From Opitutales bacterium (GTDB taxonomy: Bacteria; Verrucomicrobiota; Verrucomicrobiia; Opitutales; UBA2987): a stretch of DNA of 64,000 bases. Positions 23,446-38,077 of the stretch are shown here, one piece after another; the stretch's first letter is position 1, and each line of letters begins with the position of its first letter. Location: the NCBI GenBank assembly GCA_965226885.1, contig CBDDEL010000012.1:32001-96000 (forward strand), read 5' to 3'. The notes beneath the pieces were generated by a model that was not told where the DNA came from, searched no databases, and saw nothing but the letters and a program-made list of their open reading frames with translations. Position numbers and translations under genes: made by a program.

Positions 23446-23457
23446 CTACCCGGATTC

Positions 23458-23574
23458 GATCATCAAATAACCAAGAAAAGGATTGAAAAATCATAGTGAA
23501 AGCAGAAAATTGGATCGAAATATTGGAATGCAGCTATTTTCAACGATTATTAATGTTCATATGGGAAATCTCGG
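23458..23574 (+). repeat. Dispersed cargo-leader element, copy R1
   Basis: GATCATCAAATAAC...TTGGATCGAAATATT...GCTATTTTCAACGATTATTAATGTTCATATGGGAAATCTCGG, ending 100 nt upstream of the asparagine-synthase-family gene. Confidence 0.9.
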
Positions 23575-23674
23575 AATTTATCTGACTTTGGACCGACTAT
23601 TGCCTATCTGAACACTGATCAATTATATATCGGCATGGATAAAACTTTCAGGGAAACTAGGAAAGCCAGCTAAT

Positions 23675-25693
23675 ATGTGTGGGATTGTGGGATATACGGG
23701 TCATTCCCTAGATGAAAGGAAATTGCAAAGGGCAGTCGATTCCCTCCATCACCGGGGCCCTGACGGGAGCGGGATATACATCGATCCGCATCAGTGTGCG
23801 GGGTTGGGACACGCCCGTTTGTCGATCATCGACCTGGAAACCGGGGCTCAACCACTCTACGCCCAGAATGATGAATTGGTGCTGGTTTGCAATGGGGAGA
23901 TTTACGACTTCGAACGGATCAGACATGAACTCGAATTAATTGGTCACGTATTCTATACTAAAAGCGATTCGGAGGTAATCCTGCATCTCTATCGGGAGTA
24001 TGGAACAGAATTCGTCCACCACCTAAGGGGCGAATTTGCCTTTTTGCTGCTGGATAAACGCAAACGCGTATTCATAGCGGTTCGCGACCGTTTTGGCATT
24101 AAACCTTTATATTTTCACGAGAATGAAGGGAAATTTGTCTTTGCCTCGGAAGCCAAGGCTATTTTCGCAACAGGATGCCATAATCCTAAAATTGACGTAA
24201 TTGCCGTTAGAAACTTTCTCAGCGGGGTTATTCCGGACTCGATTTTTAAAGATATTGAGGTTGTTCCACCGGGATGCCTGATGAAGGTGGACCTCGATAG
24301 CCGGAAGCATGAGATTCACCAATACTGGGATTTGGATTTGCCGCTCGAATGCGAAATCAAAGATGGCAAGGAACTCGATCATCATGCGCAAACCGTCCGT
24401 GAAGCCCTCGATGAAGCGGTTCGTCTGCGTTTGCGTGCGGATGTCCCCGTTGGCATCTATCTGAGTGGAGGAATTGATTCAGCAATTGTGGCCGCATCGG
24501 CCGCCAAACAGCATCCCGGCCGGATTAAGGCATTTACCATATCCTTTCCCGGGGAGGAAAATTTTAATGAGTATCGATTGGCCAAAGATATGGCCAAAAA
24601 GATTGGGGCCGAGTTCCATTCGGTTACCTGCGATCACGAAACAATGCTCAAGAACACCGAGGATTGCTTATGGGTTTCCGAATTTCCTTTTCATAATTTT
24701 CACGGAGTTGGCAAATTTCTCTTGTCTCGTTTGGCACAGCAGCATGTCAAAGTGGTTTTGACCGGGGAAGGCTCCGACGAGGTATTTTTGGGGTATGTCT
24801 TTTTTCAACCCGGCAAAGGCGCCATAACGTGCCAGATGGAAAACCGTTTGAAGACGCTGCGCACTCCCAGTGGACCTCATATCAGTGCAATTATCGAGGC
24901 GATTGGCTTTCTGCCTTGGCAGGAGCATGCGGAATCCTTTACCAAGGGGCGGCAGAAGTTTATAAGGAACCTTTTCCATCCCGACCAACATTCGCGGATT
25001 TCCGATAATCACCCCCTGGAGTGGCTCAAGCGGCGTATAGAGCGAACCCAAACGGATGAACGGTCCCCGGTCAAAAAAATTCAATACTTCTGCATCAAAG
25101 CGATACTGGCTCCCTATATCCTGACAATTCTTGGCGATCGGCAGGAAATGGGACACTCCATAGAAGGGCGCACACCTTTTCTTGATCACCATCTCTTCGA
25201 TAAAGCCAGGAGAATTCCGGACCGTTTCAAGATACACAATGGGGTCGAGAAATATGTATTGCGAGAAGCGTTAAAAGACGAGATTACCGACGAAATATAC
25301 AAACGTGAAAAATGGCCCTTCTGCGCCCCACCCTTGTGGATAAAAAAGGGCATTTATTCAACACTCGATCAGATTTACGATCGTTATTTATCTAAAAAAG
25401 CCATCGCAAAAAGTGGTATTTTCAACTACCGCATGATTCGTCGCTGCCGCTGGCTAGGACAACTGATTTTCTTCGATTGCGCAATAAAACGGAAATTGAA
25501 CCAGATGTGTGTTTTCATTCTCACCGTTCAGATTCTGGACCAGCTTTACGTCCAAAATTTCGAGGAAAATCTGCAAAAACGACTGGCTGACAGGAAAGAG
25601 TCCGCCTACAAAACACCATCGGCTGCATCCAGTCCAAAGAAAAAGGATAAGCCACAGATCAATGATCCTCTATTGCAGAGCGAAAAGCTGTAG
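23675..25693 (+). CDS. asnB: Asparagine synthase (glutamine-hydrolysing) family amidotransferase
   Basis: N-terminal MCGI; motifs HRGPD, RLSIID, NGEIY, RDRFGIKPL, LSGGIDS, TGEGSDE, R.PFLD. True substrate unknown. Confidence 0.88.
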   Translation: MCGIVGYTGHSLDERKLQRAVDSLHHRGPDGSGIYIDPHQCAGLGHARLSIIDLETGAQPLYAQNDELVLVCNGEIYDFERIRHELELIGHVFYTKSDSEVILHLYREYGTEFVHHLRGEFAFLLLDKRKRVFIAVRDRFGIKPLYFHENEGKFVFASEAKAIFATGCHNPKIDVIAVRNFLSGVIPDSIFKDIEVVPPGCLMKVDLDSRKHEIHQYWDLDLPLECEIKDGKELDHHAQTVREALDEAVRLRLRADVPVGIYLSGGIDSAIVAASAAKQHPGRIKAFTISFPGEENFNEYRLAKDMAKKIGAEFHSVTCDHETMLKNTEDCLWVSEFPFHNFHGVGKFLLSRLAQQHVKVVLTGEGSDEVFLGYVFFQPGKGAITCQMENRLKTLRTPSGPHISAIIEAIGFLPWQEHAESFTKGRQKFIRNLFHPDQHSRISDNHPLEWLKRRIERTQTDERSPVKKIQYFCIKAILAPYILTILGDRQEMGHSIEGRTPFLDHHLFDKARRIPDRFKIHNGVEKYVLREALKDEITDEIYKREKWPFCAPPLWIKKGIYSTLDQIYDRYLSKKAIAKSGIFNYRMIRRCRWLGQLIFFDCAIKRKLNQMCVFILTVQILDQLYVQNFEENLQKRLADRKESAYKTPSAASSPKKKDKPQINDPLLQSEKL

Positions 25694-25816
25694 AACCTGT
25701 TTCACCTCTAATTTAATTTTCAGCGGAACTGCCGGGACGCAGAAGGTCGCCCATTCGATAGGCGTCCTTTCCCTTCGATGAATAGAAAAGAGCAAAATAT
25801 CCGCCCAAAACGAAGA

Positions 25817-25860
25817 TGATGTGACCGCCGAAAACACGACCATTGCCAGTGTGAGTCTCT
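25817..25860 (+). mobile_element. Isolated left end of IS3-family type D
   Basis: TGATGTGACCGCCGAAAACACGACCATTGCCAGTG, nearly identical to the left ends at 43977 and 62500. Confidence 0.8.
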
Positions 25861-25987
25861 ATGGGATGGGGAATGAACCCTTGGTTAGGGTATTTCCATT
25901 GCTGTGATGACAAATTTCCGGACGGGTCAGTAGGGCCAAAGCGATTACTTCTTGGCTGAAATAGCTGGATTGACAATTGTCAAAACG

Positions 25988-26081
25988 AATTGTCAAAACG
26001 TATTGAAATCAGATAATTGGATCTTAATATTGTTGCCTACCTATTTTCAACGATTATGAATGTTCATATGGGAAATCTCGG
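25988..26081 (+). repeat. Dispersed cargo-leader element, copy R2a
   Basis: TTGAAATCAGATAATTGGATC...CTATTTTCAACGATTATGAATGTTCATATGGGAAATCTCGG. Confidence 0.88.
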
Positions 26082-26255
26082 TTTGTGGTGAGCTTGGTTG
26101 ATAAAACGCTTGAAGATGGCGGCTGTAGGCTATCAGATAATTGGATCTTAATATTGTTGCCTACCTATTTTCAACGATTATGAATGTTCATATGGGAAAT
26201 CTCGGTTTGTGGTGAGCTTGGTTGATAAAACGCTTGAAGATGGCGGCTGTAGGCT
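26008..26255 (+). repeat. Perfect 124-bp tandem duplication creating copy R2b (26132-26205)
   Basis: 26008-26131 equals 26132-26255. Confidence 0.93.
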
Positions 26256-26324
26256 TATAGTACCCAATCGGCAGATGCGTCAGCGCTGCCTGTAATGAAG
26301 TTAGCTTAACTAAAGGAGATTCTG

Positions 26325-27545
26325 ATGAAAAAAATAACCAATGCAAAAATCGTGTGCGTACTATATGACGATCCGGTTGATGGCTATCCCACAAATTACG
26401 CGCGCAGCGATATTCCTATGCTGGATACGTACCCAGACGGACAAACTTTGCCATCTCCACAGACGATTGATCATACTCCCGGCGCACTTCTCGGCAGCGT
26501 TTCTGGCGAGTTAGGTCTGCGTAAGTTCCTGGAAGAGCGTGGCCATACACTTGTCGTGACCTCCGATAAAGATGGCCAGGAATCTGTGTTTGAAAGAGAG
26601 CTTGTTGATGCAGATATAGTGATCTCTCAACCCTTTTGGCCTGCGTATCTAACTGCAGAGCGGATAGCAAAGGCCAAAAATCTTCAGTTGGCAATCACGG
26701 CTGGTATTGGATCAGATCACGTTGATTTACAGGCGGCGATAGACCATAACATTACCGTTTGCGAAATTACCTATAGTAATAGTATCAGTGTGGCGGAGCA
26801 TGTCTGCATGATGATATTGTCTCTGGTTCGCAACTATATCCCGTCGTACAACTGGGTAATCAAAGGAGGATGGAACATAGCCGATTGTGTTTCGAGGTCG
26901 TATGATATTGAAGGGATGAACGTTGGGACCGTCGCGGCAGGTCGTATTGGAAGCGCGGTACTCAAAAGAATGAAACCTTTTGATGTGAAACTTCATTATA
27001 CCGACAGGCACCGACTTTCAGTTGGAATTGAAAAGGAACTCAACGTGACTTTCCATGAGAGCGTTGAATCCATGATCAAGGTGTGTGATGTGGTGACAAT
27101 CAACTGCCCACTTCATCCTGAGACGGAGCATATGTTTGATGAGAAAATGATTAGCAAAATGAAGCGTGGCGCCTACCTGGTTAATACAGCTCGAGGAAAG
27201 ATTTGTGACCGCGACGCTGTCGCAAAAGCCTTGGAGAGTGGTCATTTGGCCGGCTATGCGGGCGATGTCTGGTTTCCGCAACCGGCGCCTAATGATCATC
27301 CGTGGAGAACCATGCCGCACCATGCAATGACACCACACACTTCAGGCACTTCTTTGTCGGCACAGTCAAGATATGCCGCGGGTAGCAGAGAGATATTGGA
27401 ATGCTGGTTCGAAGGTGAGCCGATTCGGAATGAATATCTCATAGTTGATGGAGGGAAGCTTGCGGGTGCAGGGGCACACTCCTATAGTGAGGGCAACGTT
27501 ACCGGCGGTTCAAAGGAGGCAGAGAAATTCGAGACGGTCGACTAA
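26325..27545 (+). CDS. fdh: NAD-dependent formate dehydrogenase
   Basis: Motifs VLYDDP, LLGSVSGELGLRKFLE, ISQPFWPAYLTAERI, GIGSDHVD, AAGRIG, NTARG, GDVWFPQPAP, PHTSG. Confidence 0.97.
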   Translation: MKKITNAKIVCVLYDDPVDGYPTNYARSDIPMLDTYPDGQTLPSPQTIDHTPGALLGSVSGELGLRKFLEERGHTLVVTSDKDGQESVFERELVDADIVISQPFWPAYLTAERIAKAKNLQLAITAGIGSDHVDLQAAIDHNITVCEITYSNSISVAEHVCMMILSLVRNYIPSYNWVIKGGWNIADCVSRSYDIEGMNVGTVAAGRIGSAVLKRMKPFDVKLHYTDRHRLSVGIEKELNVTFHESVESMIKVCDVVTINCPLHPETEHMFDEKMISKMKRGAYLVNTARGKICDRDAVAKALESGHLAGYAGDVWFPQPAPNDHPWRTMPHHAMTPHTSGTSLSAQSRYAAGSREILECWFEGEPIRNEYLIVDGGKLAGAGAHSYSEGNVTGGSKEAEKFETVD

Positions 27546-27571
27546 GTGAATTCATTGCTATCAAGCGAAGC

Positions 27572-27669
27572 TGTAAACGCCGGGATGCAACCGGCACAGT
27601 AAACGGGTCGCTTTAAAACCGGTAAGCTTCGTCTTCAAAAGAGGAGTATACCGAGATATGAAGCAATGA
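27572..27669 (+). mobile_element. Diverged IS21 left-end remnant with the start of istA
   Basis: TGTAAACGCCGGG...TTTAAAACCGGTA...GAGGAGT...CGAGATATGAAGCAATG parallels the left end of the complete IS21 copies. Confidence 0.75.
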
Positions 27670-27687
27670 GTATAAAGAGGTTTCCTG

Positions 27688-27784
27688 AATTGTCAAATTC
27701 AGCCAGGGAAAGCAGAAAATTGGATCGAAATATTAGAAAGTAGCTATTTTCAACGATTATGAATGTTCATATGGGAAATCTCGG
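27688..27784 (+). repeat. Dispersed cargo-leader element, copy R3
   Basis: GAAAGCAGAAAATTGGATCGAAATATTAGAAAGTAGCTATTTTCAACGATTATGAATGTTCATATGGGAAATCTCGG. Confidence 0.9.
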
Positions 27785-27853
27785 ATTGAATATTCGGTGA
27801 ACGCCAATGTCTAAGCCACTTCCAAAAGATATTATTGCTAGGTTTTTTAAAGA

Positions 27854-28021
27854 ACTTCCGAAGGCCTCGACACCGCCCTCAGAGGCAAAGGTTGGCGATT
27901 CTACGATTTCCCGGACGTCGGCGCTACTCGGCTCATGTGCGGCTGGGACACGACGGAAGACGATGTCAACAAGTTTGTGGCCGATGCCGTAGAGTTGGCC
28001 GGAAAGGAGAAAAGATCATGA
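27854..28021 (+). pseudogene. C-terminal remnant of a low-specificity threonine aldolase-like gene
   Basis: My translation: TSEGLDTALRGKGWRFYDFPDVGATRLMCGWDTTEDDVNKFVADAVELAGKEKRS*. The stop overlaps the ALDH start (ATGA). Confidence 0.7.
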
Positions 28022-29487
28022 AAACCTGTCAACACTTCATCAATGGCGAGTATCAGAGCAGCGCCGAGACATTTGAAACCGTCAACCCGGCGACCGGCGA
28101 AGTAATCGCCACGGCGGCACGGGGAGCAAAAGCGGAGATTGAATTGGCCGTGGATGTCGCCCGAGAGACGTTTATGACGACGTCATGGGCGGACATGGAT
28201 GGTCGGCTGCGCGGGGAGTTGCTGCGAAATGTGGCCGAGGCGATACGCCGGCATGCCGAGGAAATCGTCCCTATGGAAGTCGCCGATGCGGGCAAGACCA
28301 TCGGCGATGCCCGTGCGGAGGTGGAGATCGCGGCCCAGGTCTGGGACTATTATGCGGACCTGACACAGTGCGCCATCGGCACGGTTAATTCCGTGCCCGC
28401 GCCGGATCAGTTCGACTATACCATTCGTCAACCGATGGGCGTAATCGGAATCATCATTCCCTGGAATTTCCCATTTGTGCTCACGGCGCTGAAGTTGGCG
28501 CCCGCCCTGGCGGCGGGCAACACGGCTGTGTTGAAGCCGGCCGAAGACACGCCCGTGACAGCCAGTATGCTGGGCGCGCTGTTGAATGAAGCCGGCGTTC
28601 CCGGCGGAGTTGTGAACATCGTTTTTGGGTTCGGCGAAGAGGCCGGCGCGGCGCTTGCCGCCAACGAGAAGGTGGAAAAACTGGTCTTCACCGGCTCAAC
28701 GGAAGTCGGTTCGCAGGTGATGCAGGCGGCGGCGAAAAATATTACTGATGTCACGTTGGAGTTGGGCGGCAAGAGTGCCAACATCATTTTCGCCGACGCG
28801 GACCGTGAGCAGGCATTGATCAGTGCGGCATTCGGTTGCCTCCTCCACAGCGGGCAGTGCTGCTGCGCGGGAACGCGGTTGTTAATCGAAAATAAGATTT
28901 ACGACTCGTTCGTGAATGAGCTCAGCGAGCGCTTCGAGCGTGTTCGTGTCGGTGATCCCGCCGATGAAAAGACCCACCTCGGTCCCATCATCAATGCCAA
29001 CCAGATGGACAGGATCGAACATTACGTCAACGTCGGGAAAGAGGAGGGAGCGACCCTCATCACGGGCGGCGCCCGAGCCGCGGGCGGTGTGCTCGACAAT
29101 GGTTTCTTCTACCAACCCACCCTGTTCGGTAACGCCAACAATGATATGCAGATCGCGCGCGATGAGATCTTCGGTCCGGTCCTGCCCTGCATGCCGTTTG
29201 ACGACATCGATCAGGCCATCGCCACGGCCAATGAATCCACCTACGGCCTCGCCGCCGGGCTCTGCACGCGCGATCTGGTGAAGGCACATTATGCGGCGAA
29301 GCGGCTTCAGGCAGGTACGGTGTGGATCAACACCTTTAACGGCCTCGCACTCAACGCGCCTTTTCTCGGTTGGAAACGGAGCGGGATCGGCGTCGAGCGG
29401 GGTGTCGAGGGTCTGCACGATCACATGCGGTTGAAGCATGTGCGCATCGACATGTCGCAGAAACCACTGCCCGTTTTTGGGGATTGA
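28018..29487 (+). CDS. Aldehyde dehydrogenase family protein
   Basis: Motifs PWNFP, KPAE, FTGS, LELGGK, GQCC, EIFGP. Start MKTCQHFING at 28018 after GGAG; the longer ORF-track start is unlikely. Confidence 0.95.
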   Translation: MKTCQHFINGEYQSSAETFETVNPATGEVIATAARGAKAEIELAVDVARETFMTTSWADMDGRLRGELLRNVAEAIRRHAEEIVPMEVADAGKTIGDARAEVEIAAQVWDYYADLTQCAIGTVNSVPAPDQFDYTIRQPMGVIGIIIPWNFPFVLTALKLAPALAAGNTAVLKPAEDTPVTASMLGALLNEAGVPGGVVNIVFGFGEEAGAALAANEKVEKLVFTGSTEVGSQVMQAAAKNITDVTLELGGKSANIIFADADREQALISAAFGCLLHSGQCCCAGTRLLIENKIYDSFVNELSERFERVRVGDPADEKTHLGPIINANQMDRIEHYVNVGKEEGATLITGGARAAGGVLDNGFFYQPTLFGNANNDMQIARDEIFGPVLPCMPFDDIDQAIATANESTYGLAAGLCTRDLVKAHYAAKRLQAGTVWINTFNGLALNAPFLGWKRSGIGVERGVEGLHDHMRLKHVRIDMSQKPLPVFGD

Positions 29488-29619
29488 TAGGTTGAGGGAA
29501 TGAGAAGGGTTAAAGGTTCAGGTTGGAATGGTGCTGATTTTCAGAGCCATTCCGATTTTACCCTATTTTCGGTCCGAGTCTTTACATTTACCAGTCGACC
29601 CACAGTCTGGTCCACCGGA

Positions 29620-29936
29620 TGCCAGATGGGGGCCCTCCTCTTTGCACCAGTGCGTCGCCAGGAAGGTGCCGTCTTGCAAGCGCACGGCGGTGGGGAAGCC
29701 GAACATGAAACTATCCAACTCCTCAACGCCCGACTCCAGGCCTTGCGGCCGTTCGCGCCGGGCCCCGCCGTCATACATCAGTCCTTCATAGCGCAGGTCC
29801 CAGGCCGTGTCCGTGAAGCTCACCAGGTTCATGACAATGCCTTGATCACCGTAGCGACGGTTGTAGAGTACCAGGAGCCGGTCCCCACCCAGAGGAATCG
29901 GAGTCATGGTTTGGCCCCATATGCCGGTGGATTGGG
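29620..29936 (-). pseudogene. C-terminal fragment of a sialidase/BNR-type beta-propeller protein
   Basis: STGIWGQTMTPIPLGGDRLLVLYNRR...FGFPTAVRLQDGTFLATHWC; no N-terminus present. Confidence 0.55.
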
Positions 29937-30230
29937 ATCAGAGTTTCATTGGCCCGATCCACGAAAGATTCCACGGCGGACGACATTTTTTTCATGGCCG
30001 CCTCGTAACCTTCCGCTGCCTGCTCCATCGCACGGCCGAACGTCTCCTGATTGATCGACCCCAGATCGAGCAGTTCATTCAGCTTTTCATGTTCAAGATT
30101 GAGCCTTTCAAGGGGTGTACGCGTTTGCTCAATAATAGCCTTGGCCACTCCCTGCAACTCATTGCGCCGAGTCATTAACTGCAAACCCTTCGCGGTTTCT
30201 GTGTTCTCCGAAATGATGGCAGCGACCGCG
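29937..30230 (-). pseudogene. Fragment resembling a phage tail tape-measure protein
   Basis: AKAIIEQTRTPLERLNLEHEKLNELLDLGSINQETFGRAMEQA resembles the RTP.E...L..G.I...T..RA segment of tape-measure proteins. Confidence 0.5.
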
Positions 30231-30249
30231 TCCTGGTTAATTGACTTTA

Positions 30250-30383
30250 TTAAATACTGCCAATTTGATCATCAAATAACGAAGGATAAGATTGAAAAAT
30301 CACATTGAAAGCAGAAAATTGGATCGAAATATTAGAAAGTGGCTATTTTCAACGATTATGAATGTTCATATGGGAGATCTCGG
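30250..30383 (+). repeat. Dispersed cargo-leader element, copy R4
   Basis: TTAAATA...GATCATCAAATAAC...TTGGATCGAAATATTAG...GCTATTTTCAACGATTATGAATGTTCATATGGGAGATCTCGG. Confidence 0.9.
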
Positions 30384-30503
30384 TTTATACGTCAACGAAT
30401 ACTGCCCCTACGAGGTATCTTGCATATCAGGTGCAACCTCAAGAGCAGGTTCTTACTCCTTTTTTTCTAGCCGGCGCGGGCAAAGCCCGACAGTCTTCCG
30501 GAT

Positions 30504-32231
30504 ATGAAACAGGAAATCAATCGTCGTAAGTTCTTGGGAACATCGATCGCGGCCGGCGCGGGCCTGACGCTTGGGGCTTTCGCTCCGCGGAGCAGGGGTC
30601 AGCATAGTAAAACGTATCAGACTTCTTCACCCAAGCTGGGATACATCTCCCCTCGTGGAAGCCGGCGGATCATTTATGTCAGCGATCCCTCCAGTATCGC
30701 CTCAGGTTATTTACCCGATCCAGCCTCTGAGGCAGATTTGCGCCGATGGGTGGATGAACTGGCGCACGCACAGGTCGATACTTTTATCCAGGAGGCTTAC
30801 ACCCAGGGGTGGACCACCTATTGGCGAACGGATGGTTTTGAGTATGACGCCCGCCCGCAGCATCGCCGCTTTCTTCCTCTATTGGATGAGGGCATACAAC
30901 CGCTGGAGGTGCTTCTGGAGCAGGCTCATGAGCGAGGCATGGAATTTCTGGTGGGTATCCGAATCAACGATAATCATGGCCATATCTCGGTAAAACAAGG
31001 CGTGGGTTTCGGAGCCTCCTTTCTGGCAAATAATCCACAGTGGTTATTAAAGGAGGCGCCGCCGGGGCCCTATTATCAGCTAAGTTCGCCCATGGACTTT
31101 AGTTTTCCCGAGGTGCGGGACTACCTTTTCTCCGTCACGGAGGCACTGGTCAGCCGTTTTCACGTTGATGGCCTGGAATTATGCTTCCGGGACCATCGTT
31201 ACTTTCCGCCCGACAAAGGGCGGGAGGGACAGCCTCTCATGACCGAACTGGTTAGGCGGATCCGTCAAATGCTGGACCAGAAGGGCCGAAGTAGAAACAA
31301 GAAGTTGCAACTTGGAGCGCGTGTTTACCAGACGGTGGAAGAATGCCAGATTCAGGGACTGGATGTCCCGGGTTGGATTTCCGAAGGCCTGCTGAATTAT
31401 CTTGCCCCGGGTGATGTCATGTACTCTGATTTAAACGCCCCTTATGAGCAATTCACTCAACTGGCCCGCGCCTCGGATTGCCTGGTCTATCCGGCGCTTC
31501 TACCCTGGAGCAGCCTAAGGATGAGGCGCCGCCTTGGGGGAATGCCTATCTCGCTTGAGCAACAGCGCGCAATCGCTCAGAACTTCTACGGGGCCGGAGC
31601 CGACGGGGTCTCATTCTATAACCACTTCGTCACCTTGAAATGGGCGCCGTTCTATCCGATGATGCTGCACGATTTCGTTGAACTGAAAAGCCCGCCGCAA
31701 GTCTCTCGAGGAAATCGCCATTACGTCTTTGAACCCATCTGGGCGGGCTGTAAGGGCTTCGGCGGCGAGGGACGCACCTCAACCGGCGCCCTGAAGGCAG
31801 ATCGGATCGTCCTGAGGCGCGCCGACTCGGGGGCCGGGGGAAGCTATCGATTTCGCATCTGCGAGGATTTTGAGCAGGTGCGGAGAGCGGCGCTGCTATT
31901 TCGCGGCCATCCCATGACGTTAAAGGACAAGCTGGAGATCCGGCTCAACGGAACTCCGATCTCTTCCGCAGCGCAAAAGCGACGAAACGACGAACAGCGG
32001 GTGGACATGGCCGCTGTGGTAGATGTAAGTTCCCGGACTGCTGCCGGCGAGACGCTTGTCCCTGAGATTCCCAGCGGTCCAATTCTGACCACCTGGTTCG
32101 AACTCACGGCTCCCCCGGCCGTGTATGGGGACAATTGGCTGGAGGTAACGTTGGTCGAAGCCGATTGCGAACTCTCTCAGGATCTCGTCATTGACGAGAT
32201 TGAAGTCTTCATTCGGCCAAAGCGCGCTTAG
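30504..32231 (+). CDS. Tat-exported TIM-barrel protein, glycoside hydrolase-like (GHL10/DUF187-like)
   Basis: Twin-arginine signal NRRKFL; motifs AHERGMEF.VGIRINDNH, DFSFPEVRDYL, VDGLEL.F, GADGV.FYN. Confidence 0.7.
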   Translation: MKQEINRRKFLGTSIAAGAGLTLGAFAPRSRGQHSKTYQTSSPKLGYISPRGSRRIIYVSDPSSIASGYLPDPASEADLRRWVDELAHAQVDTFIQEAYTQGWTTYWRTDGFEYDARPQHRRFLPLLDEGIQPLEVLLEQAHERGMEFLVGIRINDNHGHISVKQGVGFGASFLANNPQWLLKEAPPGPYYQLSSPMDFSFPEVRDYLFSVTEALVSRFHVDGLELCFRDHRYFPPDKGREGQPLMTELVRRIRQMLDQKGRSRNKKLQLGARVYQTVEECQIQGLDVPGWISEGLLNYLAPGDVMYSDLNAPYEQFTQLARASDCLVYPALLPWSSLRMRRRLGGMPISLEQQRAIAQNFYGAGADGVSFYNHFVTLKWAPFYPMMLHDFVELKSPPQVSRGNRHYVFEPIWAGCKGFGGEGRTSTGALKADRIVLRRADSGAGGSYRFRICEDFEQVRRAALLFRGHPMTLKDKLEIRLNGTPISSAAQKRRNDEQRVDMAAVVDVSSRTAAGETLVPEIPSGPILTTWFELTAPPAVYGDNWLEVTLVEADCELSQDLVIDEIEVFIRPKRA

Positions 32232-32397
32232 ATGAAATGCATCGTCATGAAGGTATATTTTGGGATCAATACAACAAAGATGATGAAATACGAAATCAAT
32301 TAGCAGATACTCAGAGTGAATTAGAAATGGTTACAAAGCCTTGCTTTGAAGAGCCGATGAAAACATACACATTATTTACAAAGCAATGGTTCACCAA

Positions 32398-32479
32398 GGC
32401 TAAAAAGGCAAGTGCACCCGGACAGCAATAATCTCCGCGGCACTCTGCTTTTTGCCGCCAGTGATTTGCGACGTTATGT
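32398..32479 (+). other. Degenerate integron attC-like site
   Basis: GGCTAAA-AAGGC-AAGTGCACCCGGACAGCAATAA...CTTTTTGCCGCCAGTGATTTGCGAC-GTTATGT; imperfect hairpin, with AAC mutated to AAA. Confidence 0.65.
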
Positions 32480-32551
32480 GTCTCTTGACGTGGCTGTTTT
32501 ATACAGCGGGACACATTACTCAGTGATAGCGGAAAGTGATTGGAGATTTGG

Positions 32552-32788
32552 ATGAAGAAACTGCCAAGCCATTCCTTGCCAACTTATTCAGAAGAATCCT
32601 GCAAGGACGCATTGTTTCATTATACTACCGCGGACGGTTTGCTTGGAATCCTTCGCGACAACGAAATTTGGAGTTCAGCCTATTATTGTACAAACGACGA
32701 ATCCGAAGACGAATCCGAACTTAGCGCGGGCGAGAACGTTTTAACACAGATCTTTCGAGCGGATATCATTAAGAAAGGCCGGGCCTGA
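32552..32788 (+). pseudogene. N-terminal fragment of a DUF2971-like protein (probable cassette remnant)
   Basis: LFHYTTADGLLGIL...IW......NDESE motif directly after the attC-like site. Confidence 0.65.
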
Positions 32789-32856
32789 GAAAACCGACAT
32801 GGCAACAATCACCGAGGTCATCAACGCTGTGGAAATTTTATACATTCTGAATCGAG

Positions 32857-33168
32857 ATGAAACTCCCCGACGCAAGCATCGGGGTATCGGGGATGAAAAT
32901 ATCTTTACCACAATGTTAATTGACGCAAATCTTCCTTCGGCTTGCCTTGGTCCAATACATATCTCTCCACCAAGGCCAAGGCCCAATTGCCTCGCTCTCC
33001 TACCGTGCCCACATAGTAGCCTGAACTCCAGAAATGCCCGCCCCATAATTCCTTCTTCAGCCACGGCTCCCGTCCACTTCAATGACTCGGCTTGTTCACT
33101 TTTTCTTCTTCCACTCATCCTCTTTATAAGCCACCTATCCCCGACGCAAGCATAGGGGAATTTACAAG
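32857..33168 (-). mobile_element. Internally deleted IS200/IS605-family (Y1 TnpA) element
   Basis: The hairpin CCCC(G/T)ATGCTTGCGTCGGGG occurs at both ends; residual TnpA C-terminus PWLKKELWGGHFWSSGYYVGTVGERGNW...VERYVLDQG. Confidence 0.8.
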
Positions 33169-33358
33169 TTAAAGATTAAATGACGGCCGGATCAAATAAA
33201 GAAAAATGTCCCTATCTCCCCGAGGAGCGCCTACTACCTTTATATTCAGTGGTCTTATCTTCAGCGATTATAAAAAATTCCTCCTTTTCAAAAGTTTTAT
33301 ATACGGGGGGCTCCGGGCATCATCCCGAGTCGCTGGGAGCTGGAGTAAGGTTTCGGGG

Positions 33359-36172
33359 TTAATTCTTGGGCACCGCGGACACGAAGTCTACGCGAACTTC
33401 ATGGAGCCGGGGTGATCGGCAGGCGTAGGGCGAAACAAACACGGCTCGGTATTGCAGCCATCGGGCGCCGCGGGGGGACCCCTTCAATTTCTGACCGGAT
33501 CGTTCATAGAAGGTATTCGGACCCTGCGGACCCATCCATGGGCTCTGAGAGAGTTCCTCCCTGGTAGGCGCGACTCGCATCTGAAATTTTAACTCTGCTG
33601 GCAGGATTACATCGGCCTTCCAGTGAAGCCGTTTGGCCGTCATGTCCGTCATGTCAAATGGCGGGGAAAAGTAGGACTCATCCGGCTCTCGGGTATAGGC
33701 ATTGCCTCGATCGCGGGCGGTCATGCCGTGGGGGCCCAGGCCCGGCAGACGCGTTGCCGGAGCGGCCAGAAAGCCGTCCGGGCCATTCCAGTAAATCAAC
33801 GAGTCAACCTGATGCCCGATGTCATTGCGGTGGCAGGCCAGGACGAGATCAATCCAACCGTCCCGGTTCAAGTCCACTTGGGTGGCGGCGCCGGAACCTT
33901 CCGCCGGCAGATTGACCGGATGGTCCCAGTCAAGAGCCTTTCCGGTGCCCCAGAATACTTGTGCGGGGATGACCCGTGCCTTGGAGGTCGAGTATCCGGT
34001 GGCAGCCACGTCCAGGTGCCCGTCGCGGTTGAAATCGGCAATGGCCGTGAAGATCGGGGTGTATTCCGCCAGCAGCTTCTGCGAGTTTTCGCTTCGATAA
34101 CCGTCGCGGCTACCGAAGAAGACGTGCATGGTGTCTTTTTGCAGGTGGTAATGCGCAGCGCATGAGACAATCAAATCAAGCCATCCATCGGCATTAAGGT
34201 CAGCGGTGTTCACGGCGATTGGATACGGCACCGGGACGCGCCAGCTGTGGTCCCCGCTAAAGCCGTCGGGCCCACCCAGATAGATGAGGATCTCATTGCG
34301 TTTATCGACGCATAAGATGTCGAGGAATCCGTCCTTGTTGACGTCCGCAAGTTTGCCCGTGTTTCCATAAGTCTCTAATCCCCGCGAACGCGAAAGGGAA
34401 TACCCCGCTTCCGAACCAAAGTAAATCCTCGAAGATTTCGCCAGCGTTTCCGGTTTGGCGTCATACACTTGCGCAAAGGCTAGAATATCGAGGTAGCCGT
34501 CGCGATTGAAGTCGGCCAGCCGAAGGTCCTGGAGGCCATCATTCGCCGGGATGTCCTGAAATCGATCCGTCGCCGGGCCGTCCGGGCCTCCAGGATGGAT
34601 TCGAATGTAGGGGGTCCATCCTGTATCTGTATTGACCCCCGCGTCGACGATGAACTCCGGGTAGCCGTCGAGATCAACATCGGCCACAAGGGCAATGCTG
34701 CTGCTGTCGACGGGGAACTCCAACCGCCGCTCGATTCCATATTCGGCTTTTTCGTTGCCGAGATAGATGTAATTGTGGATTTTGGACAGATGGCCGCCCA
34801 TGGTGTTGTTGAAAACAACCTCCGGTCGGCCGTCCCCATTAAGATCGCCGGCCGTATTGCCGACGGCGCCGCCTGTCGGAAACCAGGTCACTCGATCCAT
34901 GGAGAAGCCCGTTGAGCCGTTCCAGAACACCGCTGAATCAACATCGTAGTTCACGTTGTCGTATTTCCGGCTGACCACCAGGTCCTTTCGTCCGTCGCCA
35001 TCGAGATCGGCCGCCGTGACCCAATCGGTGTGTGTCAGCGGCAACGATAGGTATACCGTCTGAAGATCCGTTCCGGAGCGAATCTCCACACCCTCAGCTG
35101 CGGCCATGAGGAGATCGTTTTTGTCATCGCCGGTGACATCCGCGACATCGATACCGATCGCCCCGGTGCTGAAGATGGAAGAATATCCGGTAGCTTCAAT
35201 GATCCGGGTGTCGTCTTTGTTGAGCTTGCCTTGCCGGTTCCAATAGATCTGGACGCGGTTTCCACCTGAAAAAATGACATCTTCCCAGTTGTCGTGATTC
35301 AGATCGGCAACGATCACACGCAAAGGGTAGGCGGTCGGCAGCCGCACCGGCTCGGATGTATCGAATCCACCCTCCGTGCCCCAGTAGACGTAGGACTCCG
35401 TGTTGTAGTCGTGCTCAACTCGATAGTTCGCCAGGGCAAGATCGACAAATCCATCCTGGTTGAGATCGGCGGCGGCAATGGAGACCGCCGCAATTCCCGT
35501 GATCGCATACTCTTCCGTGGCCTCGGTGAACCGGCGATCTTCTCCGCCCAGATAGACCCGGGCGTGCTTGGGCTCTCCGGGATTATGGGGATCGTTCCAG
35601 GAAGTAGGGAAGATCAGATCCAGGATGCCGTCGCGGTTAATATCTAAGACAGCCACATCGTAGGCCCCGGTCGTTGGCAGGTCGGTTCGCTCGACACCGA
35701 GTCCGTCGGGGCCGCCCCAGTAGACAAACGAGGGAAGCTCCGAGGTAACACCGTTTTGGCCGTTAGCCACAACCAGGTCCGTATGGCCGTCCCGATCGAG
35801 ATCAACGATCCGGCTCATCCAACCGCTATCAGCGGACATCTCCTTCCGGGTCCAACTCTCGCCCTTGTCCTGAAGCGTATAAACATGTGTCGGCCCGCGT
35901 TCGATATAATCGTGCGAATTGGCCAGCACCAGGTCGACGTAGCCATCGTTGTTTACGTCCAGCCGGTGAATCATCTCGATGACGCCATTGGCGTTGACGT
36001 AAAGATTGCTCCCGCCGTCTTCGAACTGCCCCTTCGCAAATTCCTCAAAGCCGCGATGAATCCACGCCTGCTCGCCCGCCTGCGCCAGGTGACTTGCCAT
36101 AATTATAACTAATGAATAAACGATAACCGGTATCTTCACCACTTTCGAGCCAGTTAAACCGAGATTTTCCAT
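33359..36172 (-). CDS. Large secreted FG-GAP/VCBS-repeat protein
   Basis: More than 10 D.N.DG..DL repeats and a signal-like N-terminus. The start is either the ATG inside R5 (36172) or a GTG slightly downstream. Confidence 0.88.
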   Translation of the reverse strand: MENLGLTGSKVVKIPVIVYSLVIIMASHLAQAGEQAWIHRGFEEFAKGQFEDGGSNLYVNANGVIEMIHRLDVNNDGYVDLVLANSHDYIERGPTHVYTLQDKGESWTRKEMSADSGWMSRIVDLDRDGHTDLVVANGQNGVTSELPSFVYWGGPDGLGVERTDLPTTGAYDVAVLDINRDGILDLIFPTSWNDPHNPGEPKHARVYLGGEDRRFTEATEEYAITGIAAVSIAAADLNQDGFVDLALANYRVEHDYNTESYVYWGTEGGFDTSEPVRLPTAYPLRVIVADLNHDNWEDVIFSGGNRVQIYWNRQGKLNKDDTRIIEATGYSSIFSTGAIGIDVADVTGDDKNDLLMAAAEGVEIRSGTDLQTVYLSLPLTHTDWVTAADLDGDGRKDLVVSRKYDNVNYDVDSAVFWNGSTGFSMDRVTWFPTGGAVGNTAGDLNGDGRPEVVFNNTMGGHLSKIHNYIYLGNEKAEYGIERRLEFPVDSSSIALVADVDLDGYPEFIVDAGVNTDTGWTPYIRIHPGGPDGPATDRFQDIPANDGLQDLRLADFNRDGYLDILAFAQVYDAKPETLAKSSRIYFGSEAGYSLSRSRGLETYGNTGKLADVNKDGFLDILCVDKRNEILIYLGGPDGFSGDHSWRVPVPYPIAVNTADLNADGWLDLIVSCAAHYHLQKDTMHVFFGSRDGYRSENSQKLLAEYTPIFTAIADFNRDGHLDVAATGYSTSKARVIPAQVFWGTGKALDWDHPVNLPAEGSGAATQVDLNRDGWIDLVLACHRNDIGHQVDSLIYWNGPDGFLAAPATRLPGLGPHGMTARDRGNAYTREPDESYFSPPFDMTDMTAKRLHWKADVILPAELKFQMRVAPTREELSQSPWMGPQGPNTFYERSGQKLKGSPRGARWLQYRAVFVSPYACRSPRLHEVRVDFVSAVPKN

Positions 36173-36292
36173 ATCATCCGTTAGAATCGTTGAAAATAGC
36201 TAGATTCCAATATTTCGATCCATTTTGCTCCTTTAAATACAATTTGGCAATCTTTCCCTTTGTTATTTGGTGATCAATTCCGCGATATTTAA
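36159..36292 (-). repeat. Dispersed cargo-leader element, copy R5 (most diverged, inverted)
   Basis: Reverse complement reads TTAAATA...GATCACCAAATAAC...TGGATCGAAATATTGGAATCTAGCTATTTTCAACGATTCTAACGGATGATATGGAAAATCTCGG. Confidence 0.87.
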
Positions 36293-36303
36293 CGAATAGT
36301 TAG

Positions 36304-37870
36304 CCCAGATATTTCGTAAAAAAAGTATCGTTGATATGCTTAACTGCTGATATACAGCAGGATAGATCAATAATTAAAGCAATATCAGCGATGACAAAAG
36401 GTAAACAATTAAAGCTACAGTTGACAAGGGTAAAAGGCCGCCGTGTGCGGGTTGATTTCAAGGGCGGAGAGGTTACTTCGGATGCCGGACTGCTTTTGAT
36501 CCGGGAAGTGGATCGGCAGTTGGGCTTGACCGAACGAGCGGCCCGACAGTTAGTGGACAAACGGCAGAAGGGCAAAGTACGCCATGAGGTATTGGGGATG
36601 CTGCGGCAGCGCGTTTACGGGCTGGTGGCGGGCTATGAGGATTTGAACGACTTTGATACCCTGCGCCACGATCCATTGTTGCAAACGGTAACGGGGCGCA
36701 TTGAAACGTTGGCCAGCGCGCCGACTTTGTGTCGTTTTGAAAACGGGCAGGATCGGCGGGCGGCCTTTGCGGTAAACGAGCTGTTGGTCGAACAGTTCAT
36801 GGGCTCCTTTGCCGAGGAACCCGAAGAGATCATCCTGGACTTTGACGCCACCGACAATCCGGTGCACGGGCTCCAGGAGGGACGTTTTTTCCACGGTTAT
36901 TATGATCATTACTGTTTTCTGCCGCTATATGTTTTTTGCGGTGATCAGCTGCTGGTGGCCTACCTGCGGCCGAGCAAGATCGATGCCAGCAAGCATGCTG
37001 GGGCCATCCTCAAATTGCTGGTTAAACGGATTCGCCAAAGCTGGCCCCGTACGCGGATTATTTGGCGCGCCGACAGTGGATTTTGTCGAGACCGGATACT
37101 CTCTTGGTGCGACCGCAACGAAGTTAGTTACATCGTGGGGATGGCTCGCAATGCACGCTTGCAGCAAGACGCCCAGCAGTTGCAAAAGCAGGCCAAAGAA
37201 TGGTTCGAACTAAGGGGTAAAAAACAACGGTTATTCCAGGACTTCGTCTATGCTGCCGATTCGTGGCGATGGCTGCGGTTGGTCATCCATAAAGCCGAAC
37301 ACACCGCACAGGGGTCCAACCCGCGCTTCGTGGTGACGAACCTGCCGGGCGATCCCCAGGAGCTTTACGACAAGGTATACTGTGGCCGCGGTGAAATGGA
37401 GAACCGAATCAAGGAACAGATGCAATTGTTCAGCGAGCGCACCAGCGCCCATCAATGGTGGGCCAATCAGTGGCGATTGCTCTTGTCGGCGCTGGCCTAC
37501 ACCTTGATGGAAGCCATGCGCCGGTTAGCCTTAAAAGGGACGAAGTGGGCGCGGGCCCAATGCCACACCCTGCGGCTCAAATTAATCAAGATCGGAGCGG
37601 TCATCGTGCGCAACACCCGAACGATTCACTTTCACCTAAGTGAGAGTTATCCTTGGGCCAGTCTTTTCAACCATGCGGCCCGCCGATTGGTGCCAACCTA
37701 AAGGGTGCATTGGTGCTGCCCCCGGCACTACCGAACCAATGGGGGAAAGGGGGCAGTGTCTCTACACCCTGAAAAACACCTAAAAATCAAGACGATCTGC
37801 TCAAAATACAAAGAAATCCATCTCCAATAGCAATAACGAGCCAAACTTTACCCTTCATGAAATATCCGGG
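36304..37870 (+). mobile_element. Complete IS1380-family element (tnp 36391-37701)
   Basis: Both ends present, TTAG duplication on both sides, intact transposase (TSDAG, LDFDATD, RADSGF, RGEMENRIKE). Confidence 0.96.
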
Positions 37871-38077
37871 TTAGCCGGATATTGTTTGACCATAAACCGG
37901 AGTTTCAGGAGGCGGTACAAACAAATAACCGAGGGTAACGCTTTTGGGATTTTGCAAACATTTCCCAAATTAGCTAAAAGTTTTAATTTTAGCAACGGAT
38001 ACGTGTTGCTGCCCCGTCGGTAAGGTGGAGCAAGCCGTTTTTTTCGAGCCTCCCCCTTCCCCCGGTGCTTTAACAGT

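Follow-up and report, generated by a model that had tools for sequence, protein, structure and literature searches.

Leader sequences upstream of unrelated genes in an Opitutales bacterium as right-end remnants of an IS1380-family insertion sequence

The window analysed here is a stretch of 64,000 nucleotides from an Opitutales bacterium (GenBank assembly GCA_965226885.1, contig CBDDEL010000012.1, positions 32,001 to 96,000 of the forward strand). It holds six copies of a non-coding leader element, each 72-137 nt long and all terminating in ...ATATGGGAAATCTCGG, in the company of several IS elements. The copies were located by BLAST of an intact parent element, IS-B (described below), against the window, and were also compared by alignment. 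The features are as follows.

20943-23445, minus strand: IS21-family IS, with istA at 21860-23296 and istB at 21096-21863
23454-23574, plus strand: R1, solo right end, IS-B positions 1565-1685
25989-26081, plus strand: R2, solo right end, IS-B positions 1593-1685
26134-26205, plus strand: R2b, final 72 nt of the IS-B end
27572-27668, plus strand: IS21 left-end fragment of 97 nt, an 82% inverted match to 23349-23445
27689-27784, plus strand: R3, solo right end, IS-B positions 1593-1685
30247-30383, plus strand: R4, solo right end, IS-B positions 1549-1685
30292-30319, plus strand: outward sigma70-like match TTGAAA-N16-GAAAAT in R4, a consensus match only
30364-30383, plus strand: right terminal inverted repeat GTTCATATGGGAGATCTCGG in R4
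36159-36293, minus strand: R5, solo right end, IS-B positions 1551-1685
36301-37879, plus strand: second, different IS1380-family IS, with a 456-aa DDE_Tnp_1_4 transposase at 36331-37701

R1 is truncated on its 5' side by the IS21-family element, which is inserted into or beside this remnant, and is oriented towards an Asn_synthase gene (23675-25693). R2 starts 1 nt 5' of a -35-like hexamer, and R2b, oriented towards a 2-Hacid_dh (formate-dehydrogenase-like) gene at 26325-27545, arose together with 50 nt of flank within a perfect 124-bp tandem duplication (26008-26131 and 26132-26255). R3 has the IS21 end fragment on its 5' side, 20 nt upstream, and faces an Aldedh gene (27835-29487), while R4 is oriented towards a GHL10-like gene with a Tat-type signal (30504-32231). 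R5 faces an FG-GAP gene (33359-36172) and is truncated on its 5' side by the adjoining second IS1380-family IS, which a sister genome carries in copies of 99-100% identity and which has been active recently.

A preliminary description of this locus had given the positions of these copies, including a duplicate near 26132-26205 that is now seen to belong to the tandem duplication, and all six were recovered by BLAST. Its observation of a common 3' stop point also stands: every copy ends ...TATGG(G/A)A(A/G)ATCTCGG, all align within IS-B positions 1549-1685 and stop at 1685, and in the alignment the flanks are unrelated directly beyond. The palindrome TATGAA-TG-TTCATA, reported for most copies, is present in five of the six, R5 being a variant that lacks it. 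The genes downstream, described as unrelated cargo, are indeed five real genes of differing domain families and unrelated function.

The leader is almost certainly the right-hand end of a 1685-bp IS1380-family insertion sequence, IS-B, of which it keeps the last 72-137 nt, that is, the right terminal inverted repeat and up to about 120 nt of the tail. An intact IS-B of 1685 bp is found in the related genome G032, with the left terminus CCCATATTTCCCATTTCATC and the right terminus ...GTTCATATGGGAAATCTCGG. Its single ORF, at positions 107-1444, encodes 445 amino acids (L020:1592-2929), scores 365 bits against the NCBIfam equivalog NF033539 'IS1380 family transposase' (cut-off 180) and aligns with Pfam PF13701 (4e-130) from position 2 to position 434 of the 435-position profile. 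The non-coding 3' tail that follows the transposase gene is 241 nt long. Three copies in G032 measure 1685 bp and those in G000 1686-1730 bp, and the usual size in the IS1380 family is about 1.55-2.0 kb. Of the 43 distinct long copies listed, about 25 stay similar for over 110 nt beyond the leader on its 5' side, and an IS-B body of 1.4-1.7 kb is common to 11-17 genomic copies. The homology between leaders thus stops at CTCGG because the transposon itself ends at that base. The preliminary description had held that the leader was not an ordinary IS, and had accepted that its reading would fall if the leader proved to be the end of a known one; this has now happened, as an IS1380-family right terminus is what the leader proves to be. 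The family is already known, and the leader represents nothing new in kind.

The same boundary is seen in more distant elements. At 11 of the 16 distant relative loci examined, the terminal motif ATGGGAAATCTCGG, with up to three mismatches, is found some 215-240 nt past the transposase; the transposases of these relatives, from Verrucomicrobia, Planctomycetota and Aminicenantes, are only 64-68% identical. With a 130-nt model, nhmmer gave no match in 80 loci of distant IS relatives, the terminal 14-nt motif being all that is held in common.

The terminal inverted repeats of IS-B are imperfect: in its consensus copy, CCCATATTTCCCATTTCATC agrees with the reverse-complemented right end, CCGAGATTTCCCATATGAAC, at 15 of 20 positions. 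The right repeat holds an ATG 14 nt before the terminus. IS1380 members normally generate target duplications of 4-5 bp. For IS1247, Table 2 of PMC3281130 gives a length of 1672 bp and a direct repeat of 5 bp. No exact 4-5 bp duplication was found in the 15 nt outside both termini at about 11 left/right terminus pairs from G000, G001 and G032, the closest approach being 4/5 at one pair. Flanks have visibly been swapped among the IS-B copies of G032, so the missing duplications may stem from later recombination rather than from the transposition mechanism. The earlier statement that the element has neither terminal inverted repeats nor target duplications therefore holds for the duplications, none having been seen, and for the fragments, but not for full-length IS-B, which has the repeats. 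Short derivatives with both ends lie outside the window (87, 220 and 292 nt in G000; 393 nt in G001). A MITE was considered for the window copies and rejected, as these have no left terminus.

The leader recurs through the genome far beyond chance. The genome-wide search proposed with the preliminary description returned 58 nhmmer matches at E<1e-3 in 5.48 Mb, most of them ending at one model position. When IS-B was cut into equal-length tiles of 130 nt and each was searched against the genome, the right end was about three times as common as the left end or the body (49 versus 18 versus 11-17 matches), although this ratio is slightly inflated because some 5-6 weak right-end matches come from a variant, 'B2', and the left ends of that variant would go uncounted. 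The transposase and left end of the solo right ends, six in the window and about 35 elsewhere in the genome, have been lost by deletion, rearrangement or the insertion of younger IS. Several remnants have been truncated by IS21 or other IS that inserted later. Thirteen of 35 solo copies start at IS-B positions 1586-1594, right at the -35 hexamer. The copies starting there were examined as possible ends of another, larger element; 6-8 of them have one upstream repeat of about 200 nt in common and so are not independent events. The IS-B copies are 91-94% similar to one another and their transposase genes are broken, whereas other IS are 99-100% alike, which agrees with the earlier proposal that the leaders predate the IS burst. 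The genome is full of IS and rearrangements, with several families present at hundreds of copies.

A further check proposed earlier concerned where homology to the downstream DNA begins. When the flanks of copies in relatives were compared with G000, homology always began at +1 or +2 after CTCGG; the same comparison recovered no clean empty site and no upstream sequence shared within 2.5 kb. The flanks that follow ...CTCGG often start T-T or N-T-N-A.

The remnants are biased in orientation. For 34 of 41 de-duplicated solo right ends the nearest neighbour is a co-oriented ORF of at least 120 aa, compared with 189 of 375 outward ends of three other IS families (Fisher p = 5e-5), and such an ORF lies within 300 nt in 31/41 and 139/375 cases, respectively (Fisher p = 3e-6). 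Copies that retain the IS body are co-oriented with the next gene almost as often (9/12), so the bias may partly reflect insertion preference rather than later selection. In a Pfam scan of 38 downstream ORFs, 29 had domains, and 26 of these were non-transposase ORFs of many unrelated families.

The promoter-like motif of the preliminary description is present as sequence, at 30292-30319 in R4, and intact IS-B has TTGCCA-N16-GAAAAT at the corresponding position, 92-65 nt from its terminus. A consensus scan found two promoter-like sites against 0.9 +/- 1.1 in shuffles. In the 30 copies that have diverged furthest, conservation is about 90% in the -35 block and 80-90% over this block and the last 40 nt, while the stretch between them drifts; 9 of the 58 copies have no promoter-like region at all. 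The IS-B tail may have outward promoter activity, as suggested by a consensus match in an A+T-rich stretch and, indirectly, by the orientation bias and by the start-codon replacements described below. Three metatranscriptome runs, available as contigs that are unable to show transcript starts and so speak neither for nor against a promoter, gave pieces on the FDH-like, Aldedh, GHL10 and FG-GAP genes and none on the element. The claim of a mobile-DNA origin, with a promoter-like signal facing unrelated genes, fares well in that the leader is an IS1380 end, from a family described in PMC9330008 as driving and capturing its neighbours.

In two genes the native start has been replaced by an ATG lying within the terminal repeat of a remnant. 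At C14:20157 in G000 the predicted protein begins MRNLG/LLFVS... (the slash marks the junction), where three sister genomes have MNAWKCL/LLFVS..., and in G002 a protein begins MGNLG/LLIII... where G000 has MKFTN/LLIII.... Both replacements are in frame and both ORFs are intact. As their native start and upstream region have been lost to the remnant, expression of these genes, if any, must come from the remnant.

Three other explanations of the leaders have to be weighed. The preliminary description had likened the leader to an integron site, a multiplied promoter and attI-like sequence where non-cassette genes would be taken up by a tyrosine recombinase. The T-T or N-T-N-A starts of the flanks do loosely resemble G/TT, homology between genomes does begin directly after CTCGG, and the genome has one integron-integrase-like gene with an IS-B copy about 520 nt away. 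However, the boundary is fully accounted for as the end of an IS whose left inverted repeat matches and whose transposase is of the DDE type, the same terminal motif closes related IS in other phyla, and 49-58 dispersed copies are found rather than one integrase-adjacent site. No integron integrase was detected within the window with TIGR02249, and the sole intI-like gene, on contig C10, is split by an IS21 copy into pieces of 186.7 and 233.8 bits, both under the cut-off of 265. At that gene a stretch of 134 nt separates IS-B from the repeat-unit boundary; it was considered as an integron link and proved to be the end of another IS-like repeat (TAGAGGCTGTCCCAAAA...), with no attI-type junction. 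The analogy with attI and IntI is thus unsupported, the conserved 3' end being a transposase-bound terminal repeat, and capture by a recombinase is scarcely credible. That the leader is a structured RNA (a riboswitch, an attenuator or a small RNA), or else the promoter and operator of one regulon whose copies selection keeps alike, is equally hard to sustain, even though the copies lie upstream of genes and the palindrome could be an operator. The downstream genes have no common function, and the predicted fold is weaker than that of shuffles (z = +1.44). The possibility of an Rfam RNA, raised earlier, was checked: at gathering score the only match in the window was a tRNA elsewhere, and at E<=1 the intact IS-B end matched no family. 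Moreover, the sequence is continuous with a transposase gene, so the copies share their ancestry by transposition; binding of the palindrome by a regulator would give the leader a further role but leave this origin as it is.

The more serious alternative is that the solo right ends are functionless, neutral debris of an extinct IS burst, their orientation reflecting an insertion habit and their excess chance or asymmetric deletion. It fits the co-orientation of most body-bearing copies and a genome packed with IS and rearrangements, in which several remnants were merely cut by later insertions, and it fits the element's lack of metatranscriptome contig cover, although contigs cannot show transcript starts. 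Under symmetric decay, however, a threefold right-end excess at equal search sensitivity is unexpected, and neutrality does not readily explain why the -35 block and the last 40 nt are conserved while the stretch between them drifts, or why the native starts and upstream regions of two intact genes have been replaced by a remnant. Neutral debris is therefore a rather unlikely account of the whole, though one with some weight.

Overall it is very likely that the leaders are IS-B right-end remnants, with promoter donation and fixation as the proposed reason for their retention. On this explanation IS-B would work like ISEcp1 and ISPme1: a complete outward promoter in the tail would drive transcription across the terminal repeat and on into the adjoining gene, and remnants that feed a gene would be retained by selection ('promoter fixation'). 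Promoter fixation would account for the roughly 3:1 excess of right over left ends and for the approximately 83% of solo ends that point into a gene start. Where IS-B lands within the first codons of a gene, the ATG of the terminal repeat (ATG-GGA-AAT-CTC-GG/) would supply a new start. That the remnants act as promoters under selection is the less secure part of this explanation, but is still somewhat favoured. A bolder extension is tentative and on present evidence doubtful: the IS-B end could be a complete portable cassette of promoter, leader, ribosome-binding purines and ATG, shared horizontally with a bacterium of another family, to which at least about 30 unrelated host genes remained wired after the IS family died out in this lineage, forming a co-expressed set that is possibly co-regulated through TATGAA-TG-TTCATA.

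As a new system the leaders are unimportant, since the element is an IS end. Their interest would lie in offering a natural example of the reach of promoter fixation outside antibiotic resistance, with the tail of one IS family standing before dozens of ordinary chromosomal genes and supplying the start codon in at least two cases. For annotation, IS-B remnants should be masked as IS fragments, and gene starts at or within 20 nt of ...CTCGG rechecked. More generally, dispersed 'leaders' with a single sharp boundary should be compared with IS termini before more exotic proposals are made.

IS1380 elements are the classic example of promoter donation. ISEcp1 and ISPme1, both of this family, are described as having complete outward promoters and mobilising 3'-adjacent DNA, and in one case a remnant of ISEcp1 some 200 bp long goes on driving blaOXA-232 (PMC9330008). 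IS-B resembles ISEcp1 in its transposase family (NF033539/PF13701), its size and its imperfect repeats beginning CC. Both have a non-coding post-transposase tail, which in ISEcp1 carries complete outward -35 and -10 hexamers reading through the right repeat into the next gene (PMC9330008) and in IS-B a consensus match to such a promoter, and both leave remnants of about 100-200 bp before genes, as upstream of blaCTX-M (PMC9330008). The hexamers differ, being TTGCCA-N16-GAAAAT in IS-B and TTGAAA-N18-TACAAT in ISEcp1 (PMC9330008), and no target duplications were seen for IS-B. IS-B is also distinct in being known from dozens of chromosomal solo remnants in the genome of one uncultured environmental bacterium, where they precede metabolic, transport and regulatory genes, in contrast to the resistance genes of ISEcp1. 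ISPme1 of Paracoccus methylutens, the other IS1380-family comparison, is described as having a strong outward 3' promoter and as able to carry 3'-adjacent DNA as transposable modules, or TMos (PMC9330008, PMC3281130). In a TMo the IS and the DNA 3' of it lie between the left repeat and a surrogate right repeat, with a target duplication. IS-B and a downstream TonB-dependent receptor gene are contained in one 5.7-kb unit present in four copies; this unit is bounded by other IS ends, and may have been moved by those IS.

With the attI/Pc region of class 1 integrons the leaders share a promoter, here a putative one, and a defined junction before varied genes. An integron has a single such site, beside its integrase gene and followed by attC-bounded cassettes. 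The leaders differ in having no adjacent integrase and no single-site architecture, and in that the IS-B junction is the terminus of a DDE transposon. The leaders also resemble putative mobile promoters, highly similar non-coding sequences found before non-homologous genes and in some cases shared across families (PMC3575422). In 'Promoter reuse in prokaryotes', Nijveen, Matus-Garcia and van Passel assigned 210 groups of such sequences to known IS (PMC3575422). Putative mobile promoters are a descriptive class without a mechanism, whereas the IS-B leaders can be traced to the remnant of a specific IS end.

The six copies in the window of what the preliminary description called a leader element (R1, R2, R2b, R3, R4 and R5) are real and much as it portrayed them. 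They are alike over their last ~95 nt, near-perfectly so over the last ~45 nt, and have the same 3' end, ...TATGGGAAATCTCGG, beyond which the sequences are unrelated. The ORFs downstream are genuine and unrelated to each other: Asn_synthase (asnB-like), D-2-hydroxyacid/formate dehydrogenase type (FDH-like), aldehyde dehydrogenase, GHL10-like and FG-GAP. A perfect tandem duplication of 124 bp accounts for the additional copy (26132-26205), and three of the other copies adjoin insertion sequences (IS):

Features adjoining the window copies (window coordinates)
20943-23445: IS21-family element (istA/istB), cutting the 5' side of R1
26008-26131 and 26132-26255: perfect head-to-tail 124-bp duplication, comprising the last 74 nt of the IS end and 50 nt of flank
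27572-27668: 97-nt IS21 end fragment, preceding R3
36301 onward: a different, recently active IS1380-family IS, cutting R5; sister-genome copies are 99-100% identical

The element consists of right-end remnants of an IS1380-family insertion sequence, in itself an ordinary thing. When the 230 nt upstream of 43 distinct longer copies were inspected, ~25 were found to have more than another 110 nt in common beyond the 5' limit originally set. Further extension led to a repeat of about 1.43-1.7 kb, in 11-17 copies; the ~400-aa protein that it encodes shows the hallmark features of IS1380-type transposases. The gene is broken in every copy in the window's own genome, G000 (longest ORFs 392-416 aa), while three copies in G032, a genome from another family, have an intact 445-aa ORF within a 1685-bp unit, here termed IS-B. 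This ORF matches Pfam PF13701 (DDE_Tnp_1_4; 4e-130) and the NCBIfam equivalog NF033539 ‘IS1380 family transposase’ (365 bits, cut-off 180). It stops at IS position 1444, leaving a non-coding tail of 241 nt; by BLAST, all six window copies fall within positions 1549-1685 and each ends at 1685. The left terminus of the unit is CCCATATTTCCCATTTCATC and the right one ...GTTCATATGGGAAATCTCGG; as inverted repeats they match at 15 of 20 positions. The absence of inverted repeats noted earlier thus holds for the window copies, because the window contains right ends only, but not for the full unit.

More distant relatives of the IS, with transposases 64-68% identical, occur in Verrucomicrobia, Planctomycetota and Aminicenantes, the closest being verrucomicrobial. 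A near-match to ATGGGAAATCTCGG lies ~215-240 nt past the transposase gene in 11 of the 16 distant-relative loci examined, and outside it the tail is not conserved in these loci. The sharp common stop at CTCGG, correctly seen from the window alone, is therefore the right terminus of a DDE transposon. No target duplications were found at the IS-B copies compared; Table 2 of PMC3281130 gives 5-bp repeats for IS1247, another IS1380-family member. Duplications may have been erased by exchange of flanks among copies, as is visible in G032. Immediately past CTCGG the flanks favour N-T-N-A: about 70% of 102 distinct copies have T at +2 and A at +4. This resembles a preference for A+T-rich targets, even with no target duplication to be seen.

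The 49-58 copies, the DDE transposase and the matching inverted repeats remove the need for an attI-type site, which is also unsupported, and the integron reading proposed at the outset was not borne out. The only integron-integrase-like gene (TIGR02249) in G000 is on another contig (C10:135438-138898), split by a 2.5-kb IS21-family insertion into halves scoring 186.7 and 233.8 bits, each below the family cut-off. One IS-B copy lies ~520 nt from its start, but the boundary between them is another IS-like end. A structured RNA was ruled out by Rfam search and folding, both negative. Nor is the element a regulon promoter, since the downstream genes have no function in common. Pfam domains were found in 29 of 38 scanned downstream ORFs, 26 of the 29 not being transposases; they include TonB-dependent receptors, aldehyde dehydrogenase, HpcH aldolase, GNAT, DAO, sulfotransferase, amino-acid permease, ECF sigma factor, catalase-peroxidase type peroxidase, RidA, aldo-keto reductases, BNR proteins, Gfo/Idh/MocA, a radical-SAM/SPASM enzyme and UxuA.

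A profile of the six copies has 58 matches at E<1e-3 in G000 (5.48 Mb, 17 contigs); nearly all end at one profile position, and their 5' starts vary widely. Searched by BLAST with one copy, 7 of 41 genomes contain the element: besides G000, all four others of the genus, none of four others of the family, G032 (17 matches, identity up to 95%) and G039 (a single match). The G032 matches, in a 2.6-Mb genome, lie on contigs C1 (340 kb) and C2 (loci L015, L018-L031). Besides intact IS-B copies, G032 has the FDH-like gene, 95% identical, fused 4 nt past the IS terminus; together these suggest that it recently exchanged DNA horizontally with the window's genus. The FDH-like gene lies 119 nt from the terminus in G000, and in G004 the gene is the second behind a copy; such differences indicate that the loci have been rearranged repeatedly. 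The FDH-like gene is 100% identical between G000 and G004, the neighbouring asnB-like gene only 90%. At the asnB-like gene no remnant is present in G004 and G001, and G002 has a diverged variant at the same junction.

Right ends are in marked excess. When equal 130-nt tiles of the intact IS were searched against G000 at one common threshold, the left end gave 18 matches, body tiles 11-17 and the right end 49. Solo right ends (no IS body within 2 kb upstream, copies with identical flanks removed; n=41) were compared with the outward ends of three other IS families in G000 (n=375). The nearest ORF (≥120 aa) is co-oriented in 34/41 versus 189/375 (Fisher p 5e-5), and a co-oriented ORF starts within 300 nt in 31/41 versus 139/375 (p 3e-6). 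Body-bearing IS-B copies are nearly as biased (9/12), so an insertion preference may contribute.

The IS-B right-end remnants have most likely been retained as donated promoters, to judge from their sequence and placement. An outward promoter match, TTGAAA-N16-GAAAAT, turns up in a consensus scan of R4, and the intact IS likewise has TTGCCA-N16-GAAAAT at the corresponding place, 92-65 nt from its terminus; 9 of the 58 copies lack this promoter-like part. The contigs of the RNA runs compared miss the element. Among the 30 copies that have diverged most, 80-90% conservation persists in the ATTGCCAAA block and over the final ~40 nt, and the stretch between drifts. Thirteen of 35 solo copies start at IS positions 1586-1594, the -35-like hexamer, although a single ~200-nt upstream repeat is common to six to eight of them, which are not independent. 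Several genes begin 0-20 nt past the terminus, which leaves only the remnant to hold a leader or ribosome-binding signal, if there is one. The conservation, the start positions and the gene spacing fit a functional promoter there, and the putative promoter would drive the adjacent gene, as with other IS1380 members.

In two genes the terminal repeat's own ATG takes over as start codon. A secreted PNP_UDP_1-family protein in G000 (C14:20157) begins MRNLG|LLFVSILFS..., whereas three sister genomes have orthologues (90-97% identical) that begin MNAWKCL|LLFVSILFS... with an unrelated upstream region. Similarly, a G002 gene (L058, G002:C10) begins MGNLG|LLIIIAV... against MKFTN|LLIIIAV... in G000 (C12:117646). 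In each of these independent in-frame fusions a secreted protein has its native start and first 5-7 codons replaced by the ATG but keeps its signal peptide. Both ORFs are intact; if expressed, they are expressed from the remnant.

The ~200-nt repeat sits before six to eight 93-nt IS-B remnants, is also found without them, and in translation resembles the membrane segment at the C-terminal end of a small ORF (...LLGGMNLTPIYLVYISWFVWIISFLKF...). Its locations, and the contacts between IS-B right ends and the IS21-family element, are:

Repeat and contact sites
G000 C14:20250-20500, C16:562680-562890, C12:130420-130580 and about 6 more: ~200-nt repeat
G000 C14:74628, C15:440077, C11:346669, C13:186134; window 23445, 27572-27668: IS21-family element in or against IS-B

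Such contacts are unusually frequent. IS21 cuts the right end at nearly the same point (profile position 93-95) in two copies and lies directly past the terminus in two, and IS21-family sequence abuts R1 and R3; the IS21-family element may prefer the IS-B tail or its palindrome as target.

Near-identical IS copies saturate G000 as a whole. The load is extreme (e.g. C10:124218-136417), with most copies matching at 99-100% identity. A 1692-bp IS accounts for ~100 full copies, a 2517-bp IS21-family IS for 59 and a 1285-bp IS for 29, with 423-nt, 505-nt and ~92-nt repeats also in large numbers. IS-B copies have mutual identities of only 91-94% and defunct transposase genes, which makes sound the original inference that they predate this burst.

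Only three aspects are unusual: the number of loci involved (dozens), the donated start codons and the occurrence in a genome from another family as well. ‘Putative mobile promoters’ as a general class include many IS, in the account of PMC3575422. Within the IS1380 family, ISEcp1 and ISPme1 are described in passages of PMC9330008 as having complete outward promoters near the 3' end and being able to mobilise 3'-adjacent DNA; a ~200-bp ISEcp1 remnant with promoter precedes blaOXA-232, termed ‘promoter fixation’. The promoter donation described there is the behaviour proposed here for the IS-B remnants.
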